Shown one piece after another: positions 9,937 to 14,165 of a DNA stretch of 45,758 bases (position 1 is its first letter; the number at the start of each line of letters is the position of its first letter). Position numbers and translations under genes: made by a program. The stretch covers positions 1 through 45,758 of the forward strand of contig JAYTSD010000025.1 in the NCBI GenBank assembly GCA_043745805.1, in the 5' to 3' direction. The stretch is from Fibrobacteria bacterium. Its GTDB lineage: Bacteria > Fibrobacterota > Fibrobacteria > UBA11236. The notes below the pieces were generated by a model that saw only the letters and a program-made list of their open reading frames with translations, was not told the DNA's origin and made no database searches.

Positions 9937-11107
9937 GGGCTTGCTCCTGGGGATTTTGGGTGTGAGCGACTGATTTAAATTGTCCGAGTGCGGCGATAAA
10001 TTCCTCAAACAAATAATGCGAGTCGCGAGGGCCAGGAGAGGCTTCTGGATGATATTGCACAGAGAAAATCGGTAAATGTTTATGCCGTAAACCGGAAACG
10101 GTTTGGTCATTTAAATTGATATGGGTAACTTCAATGTTATCTTTGTCTAAAGATTCGGGAGCGATGGCAAAGCCGTGATTTTGCGAGGTGATTTCCACTT
10201 TTCCGCTGCGTAAGTCCATGACCGGATGATTCGCTCCGCGATGTCCAAATTTTAATTTATAAGTTGTGCCGCCCAAGGCGCGGCCTACTAATTGATGGCC
10301 AAGGCAAATGCCAAAAATAGGACGATAACCGATAAGTTCTTTTATCGTTTGCACAGCTTGATCTAAACGTGCAGGGTCGCCAGGGCCGTTGGAAAGGAAA
10401 ATCCCATCGGGATTTATCGCTTTGATTTCGTCGGAACTTACCGTAGCGGGGAAGCGCACAATTTTGGCTCCCAAGGAAGTGAGTATGCGTAAAATATTAC
10501 TTTTAATCCCATAATCAATAGCGGCTACCGTGAACATTGGCGGCGCATCGGGAGTGGCCAAATAGCGTAAAGGGTTTTCGCCTTGTGTCCAACCTTCTTT
10601 TTCTTTAATTGTGACTTTGCTAACAAAATCAATATTCGAAAAATTGGGAACTTGCTTTACCTTTTGTAATACGTCTTCGATTTTATAATCACCTACCACA
10701 ATGACGCCATTCATTACGCCACCTTCACGGAGAATACGCACCAAGCGACGCGTATCAATACCTTGAATACCTGGTATACCATTGTCTTTTAAGTATTTTG
10801 AAAGTGTAAGTGGAATACCGTTTGTGGTGCTGCAACGCCAATTGGAAGGGTATTCACAACAGTTTTTAACCACTAAGGCTGAAATCTGTACTTTGCGACT
10901 TTCAACATCTTCGAGATTGATCCCATAATTGCCAATTTCGGGATAAGTTAAGGTTACGATTTGACCCGCATAAGAGGGATCGGTAAGGATTTCTTGATAA
11001 CCAGTAAGCGAAGTGTTAAAACAAACTTCACCTTCGGTATCCTTTTCAGCTCCAAAAGATTCGCCTTCAAAGTAATTTCCATCTTCTAAAGCCAAAACCG
11101 CGCGCAT
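9926..11107 (-). CDS. carA: Carbamoyl-phosphate synthase small subunit
   Basis: FNTSLTGYQEILTDPSY, LSNGPGDP, GICLGHQ, SQNHGF, QYHPE. Confidence 0.99.
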   Translation of the reverse strand: MRAVLALEDGNYFEGESFGAEKDTEGEVCFNTSLTGYQEILTDPSYAGQIVTLTYPEIGNYGINLEDVESRKVQISALVVKNCCEYPSNWRCSTTNGIPLTLSKYLKDNGIPGIQGIDTRRLVRILREGGVMNGVIVVGDYKIEDVLQKVKQVPNFSNIDFVSKVTIKEKEGWTQGENPLRYLATPDAPPMFTVAAIDYGIKSNILRILTSLGAKIVRFPATVSSDEIKAINPDGIFLSNGPGDPARLDQAVQTIKELIGYRPIFGICLGHQLVGRALGGTTYKLKFGHRGANHPVMDLRSGKVEITSQNHGFAIAPESLDKDNIEVTHINLNDQTVSGLRHKHLPIFSVQYHPEASPGPRDSHYLFEEFIAALGQFKSVAHTQNPQEQALAR

Positions 11108-11172
11108 TAAACCACCTCTATTTTTTTACTTCTGCTATGATATTTCTAAAGCCAGTTTTTATTTTCAGCTTT

Positions 11173-11979
11173 TTACTGAAAGGAGCTTTGTCGGGAGAAG
11201 ATCAGCGAACGTTTTTCGCTCAAGATCATGTCCATCCCTTGATCATGTGGCTCTAAAGGTAACTTTTTATCTACGATTTGAACATCAAAACATAGGCCAA
11301 TTTTAAAGCCGGCTCTCTGGCTCAAATAACGATCATAAAAACCCTTGCCTTTCCCTAAACGGCCTCCTTGCAAATCAAAACAGCTTCCGGGAATCAATAT
11401 TAAATCCGGACTTTCGCTAGATTCATGCGCAGCAGGCCAAAGAGAAGGGGCCGGTTCTTGAATGCTGAAATGGCCTTCAATTAAATCTTTATTTAAATCG
11501 GTAATTATGGCCATATCCATACTTGTTTCTTCACCCTGCACGCGAATAAAGGGTAGCATTAATTTTTTCTGATCTTGTAAAATCATTTGCAAAATATGTT
11601 CGGTGTCGATTTCTTCAAGTGAGCCCACAAATGCGGCTATGACTTTGGCATTTTGATAGTCTGGTAAAGCCTTTAATTTGTCGAGCACTTGAGCCGCAGC
11701 CTCATGCTTTTCAAAAGCTGTGATCGTTCGGATTTTGGCTATGGCTTCGGTACGCGTTTCAGCTTTGGATTGCTTTACAGTAATGACTTTTTCTTTTTGT
11801 TCTTCTGCTACTACTAAAGTATTAATGTGTTGTTTTACATCCCCTTGAAAGCGCGTTACCTTTTTTTTGAAGTCATTAATTTTTTTTAAATAATGACCTA
11901 CTTTTTTAGGCTCGACAAGCAAAATCATCAGTGCAAATATGACTCCAATTTCACCAATGCCTAAGGAATCAAAAATCAT
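11173..11979 (-). CDS. TatB/TatA-like N-terminal module fused to 5-formyltetrahydrofolate cyclo-ligase (268 aa)
   Basis: ATG at 11979 overlaps the tatC stop (ATGA); MIFDSLGIGEIGVIFALMILLVEPKK plus amphipathic helix; then EIDT, PDLILIPG..FD..GGRLGKGKGFYDRYL, EPHDQ.MD 5-FCL motifs. Confidence 0.85.
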   Translation of the reverse strand: MIFDSLGIGEIGVIFALMILLVEPKKVGHYLKKINDFKKKVTRFQGDVKQHINTLVVAEEQKEKVITVKQSKAETRTEAIAKIRTITAFEKHEAAAQVLDKLKALPDYQNAKVIAAFVGSLEEIDTEHILQMILQDQKKLMLPFIRVQGEETSMDMAIITDLNKDLIEGHFSIQEPAPSLWPAAHESSESPDLILIPGSCFDLQGGRLGKGKGFYDRYLSQRAGFKIGLCFDVQIVDKKLPLEPHDQGMDMILSEKRSLIFSRQSSFQ

Positions 11980-12704
11980 GCAACAACCTTGGTCCGTTTT
12001 ACGGTTAAGGCGCAAACCCCAATAGAAATGATATAGAGTAAACAAAGTGGGATAGCCATTAATAACTGAGAAACAGGGTCGGGTCCTGGGGTTAATAAGG
12101 CGGCAACAATAAAAATAATCACTACGGCATAACGAGAAAAAGACCACATGCCACGTGGGCTTACCAAACCGAGTGTGCTTAATACATAGGTTGCTACGGG
12201 CAATTCAAAAATAATTCCAAAGGCCAAAAGAAATTGGGAAATGAAGGAGGCAAAATCCCCTTGTTTCCAATTTTGGGTAATGGATCCTTGCATATAATTG
12301 GCGAGAAAATAAATCCCTGCGGGTAAAACTGTATAGTATGCAAATGCGGCACCCAGCACAAACATAATTAGCGATCCAAAAAAAGCTTTTACGAATATGT
12401 TTTTTTCTTTAGGAAAAAATGCAGGTTGTAAAAAAGACCACATTTGCCACATTACCCAAGGAGAAGCTATAACGATGCCGGCAACAAAAGACATTTTTAT
12501 ACTGGTCATAAAGGTTTCCATCGGCGAAGTGGCGATGAGTACAACCTTCAAATGTTGTTTAGTTAAGGGATAAGCAATGGCATTCCAAATTCTTTCCCAA
12601 AAGGAATAGCATAAAGCGGCTCCTATAAAAATCCCTAAAATGGATTTAAGTAGTCGCGAGCGTAATTCGGAAATATGATCCCAAAAAGTTTGGTCTGGGC
12701 TCAT
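11976..12704 (-). CDS. tatC: Twin-arginine translocase subunit TatC
   Basis: FWDHISELRSRL, WQMWSFLQP, FELP, AALLTP.PDPVSQ; multiple TM segments. Confidence 0.97.
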   Translation of the reverse strand: MSPDQTFWDHISELRSRLLKSILGIFIGAALCYSFWERIWNAIAYPLTKQHLKVVLIATSPMETFMTSIKMSFVAGIVIASPWVMWQMWSFLQPAFFPKEKNIFVKAFFGSLIMFVLGAAFAYYTVLPAGIYFLANYMQGSITQNWKQGDFASFISQFLLAFGIIFELPVATYVLSTLGLVSPRGMWSFSRYAVVIIFIVAALLTPGPDPVSQLLMAIPLCLLYIISIGVCALTVKRTKVVA

Positions 12705-12722
12705 TAAAAATAAAGACTAGCG

Positions 12723-12959
12723 TTAGCTATTTTTAGGTGGAATTTCTTTGGACTGGTCTTTGGTAACCTTGTCCTCAGGTTTGGCAATTTGATTTTTTGC
12801 TGCTTCGGATTCGGCATCAGTACCATTCATCGATGTTTTAAAATCGCGAATACCTTTTCCCAAACCTTTGGCTATTTCCGGAATTTTTTTGCCACCAAAA
12901 AGCAAAATCACAATGAGAAGAATAATAATGAGTTCTGTGGGCCCTAAATTACCGAACAT
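12723..12959 (-). CDS. tatA: Twin-arginine translocase subunit TatA/E
   Basis: [37 protein letters not shown]. Confidence 0.97.
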
Positions 12960-12986
12960 AAAACCTCGCTTTCAAACTTGGGGGAA

Positions 12987-12996
12987 ATATAGCAAT
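12987..12996 (-). promoter_or_regulatory. Candidate extended -10 promoter of the tatA operon
   Basis: TTGCTATATT on the minus strand about 27 nt upstream of the tatA ATG, followed by a GAGG SD. Confidence 0.45.
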
Positions 12997-13010
12997 AATA
13001 ACCCACTTTA

Positions 13011-14165
13011 CTATTCTAAACTCTCGCTTGGCAGAACAACTTTAAGCCAATCCTCGACTAAAAGGTTTTCTTGCCATTTCATCCAATGGGCTGCGGCACT
13101 TATTTTTTCGCGCGAGACGCAACTCGTTAAAGCTACGGCGGTTAAGTTACTGCGATTAATTAAAAGGGAAGGATCTATTCCCAAGTCTTGTGCGATTTGA
13201 TCGCGGATAGTTTTTAATTGAGCCAATAATTGTGCATTGGGACTTTTGGGCGTCTTTTTGACAATCTTAATGGGCTGAGGCCAATTCTCTTTGCTTTCCT
13301 TCAAGGCTTTGCGGAAATCATCTTGAAAGCGTTGACGGATATTTTCGGATAAGCGAGACGGTAATGTAGGCACGCGTTCGGGTTCACCTGTTTCGGGAGT
13401 ATTCAGCGCAAAGCGCAATAAAATCTCCGAAGGCAATATTCTATAGCTGGGTAAGTCACGGCTTTGGGCCATACTTTCACGACAAAGCCATAAATATTTT
13501 AATACGCATAATTGCCGAGGACTGAATTTGGATGCGCCTTCAATACGCCAAGAGTTTTCTAAATCCACTGTTTTTGAAAGAGCGGTAACCTTAATGAGTT
13601 CATCGCAGCATTCACTATGCCAGCTTAAGCGGCCTTTAGCTTCTAATTCTTCGCTTAACTTCTCAAATAATCCGGGCAAATAAAAAGTGTCTTGTGCCCC
13701 ATATTGTAGCATTTCCGGCGATAGGGGCCGAATGGACCAATCGGCTTTTTGATGCTCTTTCACTAAGGTAACACCAAAGTAACTCTGCACTAAGGCGGCT
13801 AAGCCGATAGAAGTTTTTCCTAAAAGTTGCGCGGCAATGACCGTGTCAAAAAGTTTGGCCGGTCGAAATTGATAATGTTGAAAAAGCATGCGTAAATCAT
13901 AATCAGAGCCATGCGCAATTATCCATTTGCTGGAAAGCTCTTTTAAAAAATCACTTAGGTCGAGTCCGGCCAGGGGGTCGATTAAATAAGCATGTTCTTC
14001 AGTTAGTACCTGTAGCAAACATATTTTGGCATAGTAATGATGCATGCTGTCGGCTTCTAAATCGAGGCAAACTCGATCGGTTTTTTTCAGAGCCGATACA
14101 ACCTTTTGCAGGCCCTCTTGAGTATCTATGGATTCGAAGGAATAGTCAGTAGGGGATAAGGGCAT
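13011..14165 (-). CDS. rnd: Ribonuclease D (3'-5' exonuclease plus HRDC)
   Basis: LDLEADS, HGSDYD, FDT..AAQLLG, ADWS.RPL...ML.Y...D; HRDC-like RESMAQSRDLP. Confidence 0.92.
   Translation of the reverse strand: MPLSPTDYSFESIDTQEGLQKVVSALKKTDRVCLDLEADSMHHYYAKICLLQVLTEEHAYLIDPLAGLDLSDFLKELSSKWIIAHGSDYDLRMLFQHYQFRPAKLFDTVIAAQLLGKTSIGLAALVQSYFGVTLVKEHQKADWSIRPLSPEMLQYGAQDTFYLPGLFEKLSEELEAKGRLSWHSECCDELIKVTALSKTVDLENSWRIEGASKFSPRQLCVLKYLWLCRESMAQSRDLPSYRILPSEILLRFALNTPETGEPERVPTLPSRLSENIRQRFQDDFRKALKESKENWPQPIKIVKKTPKSPNAQLLAQLKTIRDQIAQDLGIDPSLLINRSNLTAVALTSCVSREKISAAAHWMKWQENLLVEDWLKVVLPSESLE

Follow-up and report, generated by a model that had tools for sequence, protein, structure and literature searches.

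A TatB-like membrane module joined to 5-formyltetrahydrofolate cyclo-ligase in the tat operon of Fibrobacterota

The window analysed here is a stretch of 45,758 nucleotides from a Fibrobacteria bacterium (GenBank assembly GCA_043745805.1, contig JAYTSD010000025.1, positions 1 to 45,758), and its tat operon raises a question: what is a single protein that begins like TatB, the least understood core subunit of the pathway of twin-arginine translocation (Tat), and continues as a 5-formyltetrahydrofolate cyclo-ligase (5-FCL)? A sequence-only reading of the locus had proposed such a fusion behind tatA and tatC. The fused gene was confirmed, and its product is a protein of 268 amino acids (aa) with homologues across the phylum. 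We favour, with moderate confidence, the view that this protein is both the TatB of a TatABC system and the only 5-FCL of the cell, carried in one chain whose halves act independently.

The fused gene and its two halves

The three genes follow each other on the minus strand in the order tatA-tatC-fusion, and the start codon of the fusion overlaps the TGA stop of tatC in the sequence ATGA, just as the sequence-only reading had it. The features of the locus are listed below with the evidence for each (AF2, AlphaFold2 model).

12723-12959, minus strand: tatA, 78 aa; PF02416 E 2.2e-18; TIGR01411 tatAE 67.7 bits against a cut-off of 53.9
11976-12704, minus strand: tatC, 242 aa plus stop; PF00902 E 9.2e-66; TIGR00945 203 bits against a cut-off of 132.7
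11173-11979, minus strand: tatB::5-FCL fusion gene, 268 aa plus stop; ATG start overlapping the stop codon of tatC
11914-11958, minus strand: transmembrane helix of the fusion, residues 8-22; AF2 helix, invariant Glu10 at the periplasmic end
11812-11910, minus strand: hinge Pro24 and TatB-type amphipathic helix, residues 24-56; profile alignment to 2mi2, AF2
11767-11811, minus strand: connecting helix, residues 57-71; AF2, conserved Glu10-Arg76 spacing
11215-11766, minus strand: 5-FCL domain, residues 72-255; PF01812, TIGR02727, Foldseek

Between residues 41 and 80, the reading frame of the fusion was free of stops and of ATG, GTG and TTG codons, in agreement with the claim that the two halves run together with neither a stop nor a separate start. 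Therefore, the enzyme half lacks an ordinary internal start. The junction was spanned, without stop or indel, by contigs of four DNA runs from one sediment-metagenome study. The contigs of two runs (X1 and X2) were identical in sequence, and both may be the assembly's own source. Those of the other two (X3 and X4), with holes in their cover at 11420-11483 and 12764-12827, showed two substitutions across 11516-11932 inside the fusion (11554 T>C and 11692 A>G) and one extra T at 11155, in the intergenic region between the fusion stop and carA; these differences are strain-level variation within one study.

The enzyme half was matched by PF01812 at residues 72-255 (E 4.9e-43; 147.6 bits against a cut-off of 27), with all profile positions (1-186 of 186) covered, and the equivalog model TIGR02727 gave 126.6 bits against a cut-off of 84.9. 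In an alignment with human MTHFS, K72 falls on K10 and R76 on R14. The Gly-rich motif (...G.R.G.G.G.YD...) at residues 205-216 is intact and lines up with its human counterpart, with RLGKGKGFYDRYL at residues 207-219. Both the K..R and the Gly-rich motif are invariant among orthologues; in a set of 31 diverse ones, R207, G209, G211 and D216 were invariant (31/31). We take K72, R76 and the residues of the Gly-rich motif to have catalytic roles. The AF2 model, built on 48 orthologues, had a mean predicted local confidence (pLDDT) of 90.2, and the best 12 Foldseek matches to it in the PDB were all members of the 5-FCL/MTHFS family (E 5.7e-17 to 4.2e-10). The best of them, 2jcb_A, gave a target-normalised TM score of 0.87 and a root-mean-square deviation of 2.3 Å, and 2jcb and 3hy6 together spanned TM scores of 0.86-0.87. 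As judged by cut-offs, predicted fold and motifs, residues 72-255 are a canonical 5-FCL, and the intact enzyme domain claimed from the first inspection of the sequence was thus borne out.

The N-terminus is the most conserved region of the fusion family. Among 48 full-length homologues, G7 and E10 were invariant, and F3, D4, S5, L6, G9, G12, P24 and K40 were at least 90% conserved; Glu10 was also invariant in the 31 diverse orthologues (48/48 and 31/31). At E ≤ 0.01, PF02416 matched 11 of the 48 close and 12 of the 31 diverse orthologues, with a best value of 3e-7, and a precomputed PF02416 match was present in 18 of the 120 homologues listed by a large protein search. The TIGR01410 tatB model matched 29 of the 31 diverse orthologues at the same threshold (best 1.6e-14), TatB_Rickett 27 and tatAE 11. 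The more distant families of the phylum have a module whose beginning looks like that of a classical TatB (..G.GFSE.. and then ..FFGSKELP..).

A profile (A4) was built from the first 66 residues of the 31 phylum-wide orthologues and compared with solved structures. It matched the TatB chains 9e02_F (E 2.2e-10), 9dzz_B (E 2.5e-8) and 9e03_B (E 2.5e-7) and E. coli TatB 2mi2 (E 6.8e-9), as well as chloroplast TatA 7b7o (E 4.3e-9), B. subtilis TatAd (E 5.1e-6) and E. coli TatA (E 3.6e-4 to 0.055). The alignment to 2mi2 pairs module positions 4-56 with TatB 3-55, Glu10 with Glu8 and Pro24 with Pro22.

Over 1.84 billion representative proteins, the same profile gave 31,995 matches at E ≤ 1e-3 and 960 at E ≤ 1e-10. 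In the best 150, 20 had a 5-FCL domain and 12 more were set aside by eye (11 fragments of fused proteins and one TatC-led protein); 117 of the remaining 118 unfused proteins matched tatB at E ≤ 1e-10, and 12 of the 118 matched tatAE. A word-based search with residues 1-70 returned five other fused proteins and zero unfused relatives, the method being too insensitive for the module. Also seen among the best matches of the profile (P0149, P0156, P0166, P0176, P0250 and P0134) were tandem TatA-TatB proteins, in which a TatB-like module at about residues 85-150 comes after a beginning like that of TatA, and one 295-aa protein with a TatC-like start, whose TatB module lies at 195-258. These tandem and TatC-led proteins could be additional natural fusions of Tat parts, or gene calls that were left unsplit.

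In the AF2 model, residues 8-22 are helical, the helix breaks at 23, and residues 24 to 83 form a single uninterrupted helix that enters the first helix of the enzyme, with pLDDT above 90 across residues 31-100. The Glu10-Arg76 spacing was 66 residues in 46 of the 48 close orthologues and 61-70 residues in 28 of the 31 diverse ones. The TatC of the window aligned over its full length to the solved TatC chains 4hts (E 5.9e-47) and 9dzz_A (E 1.2e-36). In the available text of a study of E. coli TatB, Glu8 bonds to Thr208 and Gln215 of TatC and is needed for TatB-TatC binding (PMC5201420); the window TatC keeps the Thr and the Gln in the partner motif LTP..D..SQ, the equivalence to the E. coli numbering being read from the motif. 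Prediction of a complex between TatC and fusion residues 1-75 scored 0.00 in both runs, with the controls not folded, and speaks on neither side of the question of binding.

At the level of profiles, residues 1-56 are a diverged module of TatB type. Several results weigh against this identity and against the favoured view. The window protein itself had no match to PF02416 at E ≤ 1, reached only 18.3 bits (E 0.0025) with TIGR01410, under the cut-off of 56.5, and only E of about 1e-3 with the NCBIfam TatA/E model, again under the cut-off. Therefore, its TatB identity is transitive, by way of its orthologues. The hinge is Glu23-Pro24, with Glu replacing the canonical Gly, as had been noticed before. 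The chloroplast TatA scored like the TatB chains, so that sequence alone separates TatB and TatA types incompletely. Furthermore, only two Tat signal peptides in the genome exceeded the TIGR01409 cut-off, so that use of the pathway is modest or detection is poor. The claim of a TatB-like N-terminus in the sequence-only reading was thus upheld by the orthologue profiles and their matches to solved TatB chains, but not by the direct comparison with PF02416.

The genome, 99% complete, was searched as a whole for further copies of either half. The 5-FCL profile and PF01812 matched the fusion alone, and a six-frame search with hidden Markov models (HMMs; N-terminal and TatA profiles) found tatA and the fusion as the only TatA/B-family genes, with tatA the only PF02416 match over the cut-off. 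Neither a second tatB nor a second ygfA was thus found in it. Two weak matches to the TatA/B profiles were rejected as TatB: the one at C46:81316-81639 is of YbaB/EbfC type by sequence reading alone, and that at C27:1567-1926 is of helix-turn-helix type by the same kind of reading.

Distribution and history of the fusion

The large protein search listed 120 homologues, of which 104 covered at least 96% of the fusion at 37-49% identity. Their sources were named Fibrobacteria, Fibrobacterota or Fibrobacteres, and the phylum was assigned as Fibrobacterota by these source names of close homologues. The homologues were annotated throughout simply as 5-formyltetrahydrofolate cyclo-ligase, and genes of this kind are at present named either so or as hypothetical protein. 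A match to the fusion protein was present in 244 of 251 genomes sampled from the phylum. Among the matches listed, at least 97 genomes had a single match running from residue 9 or before to residue 250 or beyond and 5 more had it in two pieces, which gives a fusion covered at the N-terminus in at least 102 of the 251. HMM reading of the loci added fusions in genera g13 and g18 of family f4 and in families f6, f7 and f14, which the first search had seen only from about residue 90. By our own count, the fused form is present in 18 of the 21 families of the phylum, and fused orthologues diverge down to 22-30% identity. The genomes counted include an unpublished one, G194, on which none of the claims depends.

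TatC was detected in 205 of the 251 genomes, including all 102 with an N-terminally covered fusion match. In the 8 TatC-negative genomes among the matches listed (20 named), no 5-FCL match started before residue 63; since these genomes are related to each other, this is an observed pattern rather than a statistical test. When 47 fused loci were read directly, tatC was immediately upstream in 46 (tatA-tatC-fusion in 40, tatC-fusion in 6). The single exception, G085, has tatA-fusion (L046:2552-3626, L047:2125-2862), with tatC on another contig. Of 80 5-FCL loci sampled from other phyla, not one encoded a TatB-like module at the N-terminus or lay within 1.2 kb of a TatA/B gene; these loci are a sample from at least 600 candidates and not a census, so that 0 of 80 does not amount to absence elsewhere.

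Some fused loci depart from the common form. An in-frame TAG was seen inside the fusion in G166 (L016:1483-2382) and G206 and inside tatC in G102, and such genes could be pseudogenes, sequencing errors or recoding. The fusions of genus g13 (L049:2778-3479, L050:2623-3348, L051:2474-3199) miss about 26 residues, including the first 5-FCL helix; as this helix carries the conserved Lys and Arg, enzyme activity is uncertain there. In G134 of family f7 (L145:3-584 (-), L159), a linker of about 130 residues lies between the TatB module and the enzyme, and the gene is split across two contig ends.

Split forms were also found within the phylum. A mini-TatB of 53-54 aa follows tatA-tatC in five genomes of three families, namely G025 and G021 (f15), G138 (genus g22 of f4) and G009 and G101 (f12), with the loci L137:3171-3593, L139:3431-3817, L140:3414-3812, L143:3195-3509 and L144:2028-2408. 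Its sequence is that of the TatB module and does not extend past the amphipathic helix. In the one of these five genomes that was checked (G025), a stand-alone 5-FCL was present on another contig. The mini-TatBs are more similar to one another than to the fused modules of the families that they belong to, a likeness that may reflect transfer of the tat operon within the phylum. The largest genus, g14, has tatA-tatC without TatB and a 195-aa 5-FCL elsewhere, and 22 of its 76 sampled genomes had no detected TatC.

A tree built from 139 5-FCL domains places the phylum's stand-alone enzymes within fused clades, with local supports of 1.0, 0.997, 0.99 and 0.92. Two origins of the fusion, as drawn by FastTree, where outgroups split the fused sequences into two clades, were rejected as a reading: a tree constrained to a single clade was likelier. 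This comparison used IQ-TREE on 81 rows (33 fused, 8 stand-alone and 40 outgroups), a set without near-duplicate rows of family f1, the long-branch f6 fusion and half of the outgroups. The approximately unbiased (AU) test did not reject a single clade for all 41 sequences of the phylum (p 0.747), and the constrained tree stood 27.9 log-likelihood units above a quick free search. The stand-alone state requires 6 changes, at least 4 of them forced by well-supported branches. The simplest reading would be one ancient fusion with several later splits, and the split forms of the phylum are, on these trees, derived. Most relatives being fused, the case of two separate genes in all relatives, which would have spoken against the sequence-only reading, does not apply. 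As the fusion was split several times leaving a mini-TatB, both halves can work alone.

A different departure was found in family f6 (G128 and G189; L134:1859-2644 (-) and L154), where a fusion follows tatC with an enzyme domain that lacks the Gly-rich motif and the conserved Asp. It reads ..FSEAYMRMSHRKDFYANLL.. where the canonical form is ..FD..GGRLG.G.GYYDR.L.., and a stand-alone canonical 5-FCL of 190 aa is present on another contig (L135:2047-2616 (+)). The fusion genes of G128 and G189 differ by 9% in DNA, with an overall ratio of non-synonymous to synonymous substitution (dN/dS) of 0.10. The TatB module had 0 non-synonymous against 14 synonymous differences, and the degenerate domain had a dN/dS of 0.14 (27.2 synonymous and 14.8 non-synonymous differences). 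The sole other homologue found, P0272 (64% identity), has the same degenerate motif. The f6 sequences, a small sample of one genome pair and one further sequence, suggest that the enzyme domain can stay on TatB without catalysis.

The operon is flanked on the same strand by housekeeping genes: upstream lies a gene for an RNase D-like exonuclease, and downstream lie carA and a gene for a SpoU methylase. A scan of 10900-13400 gave 5 promoter-like sites, compared with 5.4 expected, and 6 terminator-like sites, compared with 2.6 expected (standard deviation 1.7), none of either kind being positioned to define the operon. The start of tatC in the window is ATG, and TTG is the best-placed start in most close relatives (loci L005-L027, family f1).

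Function of the fused protein and alternative explanations

If the protein works as a TatB with an enzyme attached, its N-terminal helix would be embedded in the membrane next to TatC, and Glu10 would occupy the polar-cluster site, as TatB topology suggests. The continuous helix would carry the 5-FCL domain into the cytoplasm, where it would use ATP to convert 5-formyltetrahydrofolate into 5,10-methenyltetrahydrofolate. The fusion would have arisen once, early in the phylum, and been inherited since. In the available text on the 2026 structures of bacterial TatBC, including that of E. coli, three TatB helices lie between the TatC protomers, the amphipathic helices of TatB form a triangle over the cytoplasmic mouth of the TatC cup, with two of them binding each signal peptide, and the physiological core is probably TatA1B2C3 (PMC13323110). 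By analogy, a fusion that inserts like TatB would hold two or three enzyme domains, each on a stalk, at the corners of the receptor's cytoplasmic side, where both ATP and folates would be within their reach.

The two activities are probably independent, and the repeated fissions argue for separable halves. This independence is challenged by the retention of the fusion in 18 of 21 families, by the conserved length of the spacer, by the predicted rigidity of the connecting helix and by the dead domain of f6, which is under purifying selection beside an active 5-FCL. That the f6 lineage has kept a fused domain without a working catalytic motif speaks for an additional role. Between the real functional link and the tolerated fusion named in the sequence-only reading, the evidence thus points both ways.

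The same observations point to a second explanation, which we hold as possible and doubtful: rather than being a passenger, the 5-FCL domain could serve in the Tat receptor itself, placed where the amphipathic TatB helices of the cytoplasmic cage of the (TatBC)3 complex end, with or without catalysis. As such it might, with equal reserve, shape the docking or proofreading of substrates, or tie Tat activity to the ATP or folate status of the cell. One tentative form of this idea is a cytoplasmic cap made of two or three copies of the domain on rigid helices at the corners of the TatB cage; it is also conceivable, and no likelier, that such a cap would dock or proofread folded substrates, or gate the receptor by the ATP or folate state. 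If there is such a cap, the dead copy of f6 with its separate active enzyme would be the structural role laid bare.

In favour of a role in the receptor, the fusion has been kept despite divergence to 22-30% identity, the 66-residue spacing holds in 46 of the 48 close orthologues, and the continuous helix 24-83 is predicted at high confidence. The f6 domain, without its motif, is conserved in three sequences down to 64% identity. In the available text of the respective sources, the TatB helices of E. coli form a signal-peptide-binding cage (PMC13323110) and chaperone-like activity is reported for C-terminal regions of TatB (PMC13673990). However, at least four independent fissions left a 53-54-aa mini-TatB with no extra domain, and one large genus has TatA-TatC without any TatB. 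Therefore, Tat works without the 5-FCL domain. In the window protein, moreover, the motif is intact and the enzyme is the only 5-FCL, so that enzyme function alone explains selection, and the support from f6 consists of one genome pair and one sequence.

A third explanation takes the module for a mere membrane anchor recycled from a TatB gene, by which the enzyme is tied to the membrane for reasons of its own, with a translocase of TatA and TatC in which TatA is bifunctional. Such TatAC systems with a bifunctional TatA occur in many Gram-positive bacteria, the TatA-TatC genus g14 lies within the phylum itself, and the divergence of the module, which fails Pfam and has lost the hinge Gly, would fit an anchor. 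We consider it unlikely. Glu10 is invariant in all 48 close and 31 diverse orthologues, and the helix pattern is conserved well past the needs of an anchor; the fusion adjoins tatC in 46 of 47 loci. After fission, the module stays as a gene of its own right after tatC, and it is the enzyme that relocates. In the 8 TatC-negative genomes among the matches listed, with 5-FCL matches from residue 63 or later, the module goes when Tat goes.

Finally, an artefact, in which an assembly or sequencing error or a chimeric contig of a metagenome-assembled genome merged two adjacent genes, is highly improbable and, for practical purposes, refuted by conservation. The genome is indeed a metagenome assembly and two of the four covering runs may be its own source, but contigs of two further runs bridge the junction without indel. 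Coverage of the protein reaches at least 96% in 104 of the 120 homologues listed, which come from many sources; the fusion is present in at least 102 genomes of the phylum, and more than 100 independent full-length homologues exclude an assembly artefact.

Relation to known proteins and significance

The reading of the protein as a TatB joined to the 5-FCL of the cell was compared with known systems. With TatB (E. coli 2MI2; the TatBC structures 9DZZ, 9E02 and 9E03; TIGR01410), the fusion shares the short transmembrane helix, a Glu equivalent to Glu8, a Pro equivalent to Pro22 and the basic amphipathic helix, and it is encoded in the tat operon as the only TatA/B-family gene besides tatA. It differs from proteobacterial TatB in gene order, which is tatA-tatC-tatB here and tatA-tatB-tatC in the operon of E. 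coli, in the Glu at the place of the hinge Gly and in its score under the TIGR01410 cut-off. It also differs at the C-terminus: where TatB has a loosely structured part, the fusion has a folded 22-kDa enzyme, attached by a helix that is predicted to be continuous.

With stand-alone 5-FCL/MTHFS proteins (E. coli YgfA, human 3HXT-3HY6, B. anthracis 2JCB, Aquifex 1SOU; PF01812, TIGR02727), the fusion shares the full-length domain, the fold, the motifs and the scores. In contrast to them, it has 71 preceding residues that should tether the enzyme to the membrane, at the Tat receptor, a module that was lacking in all 80 sampled loci of other phyla. The split lineages of the phylum have the same TatB module after tatC, and their 5-FCLs nest in the fused clades, whereas their module ends at 53-54 aa and the enzyme is encoded elsewhere. 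Two-TatC proteins of haloarchaea are described in the available text of a Tat-evolution review (PMC13673990). In these and in the tandem TatA-TatB fusions, parts of the Tat system are joined to each other, but TatB is not joined to a metabolic enzyme as it is here.

No paper linking TatB or Tat to 5-FCL or to Fibrobacterota was found in a literature search (subscription journals and supplements were outside its scope), in line with the tentative first impression that the fusion was undescribed, and a term search of the available text of the 2026 review cited above gave zero occurrences of Fibrobacter, cyclo-ligase and folate (PMC13673990). The architecture itself is implicit in the precomputed Pfam matches of homologues and may be listed in domain-architecture databases. 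The fusion is real, old and spread throughout the phylum, and is most likely a TatB whose tail has given way to an enzyme.

As the homologues are annotated as 5-FCL or hypothetical protein, the TatB of most Fibrobacterota goes unrecognised and their Tat systems would be misread as TatAC. In 2026 structures, as far as the available text describes them, the amphipathic helices of TatB form a cage for the signal peptide on the cytoplasmic face of TatC (PMC13323110). A folded 22-kDa domain at the end of the TatB helix throughout a phylum shows how much bulk the receptor tolerates, and the fused domain is a built-in handle for localisation and structural work. With three natural states at hand, fused, reduced to a 53-54-aa mini-TatB and carrying a dead domain, any function of the cytoplasmic part of TatB becomes testable.

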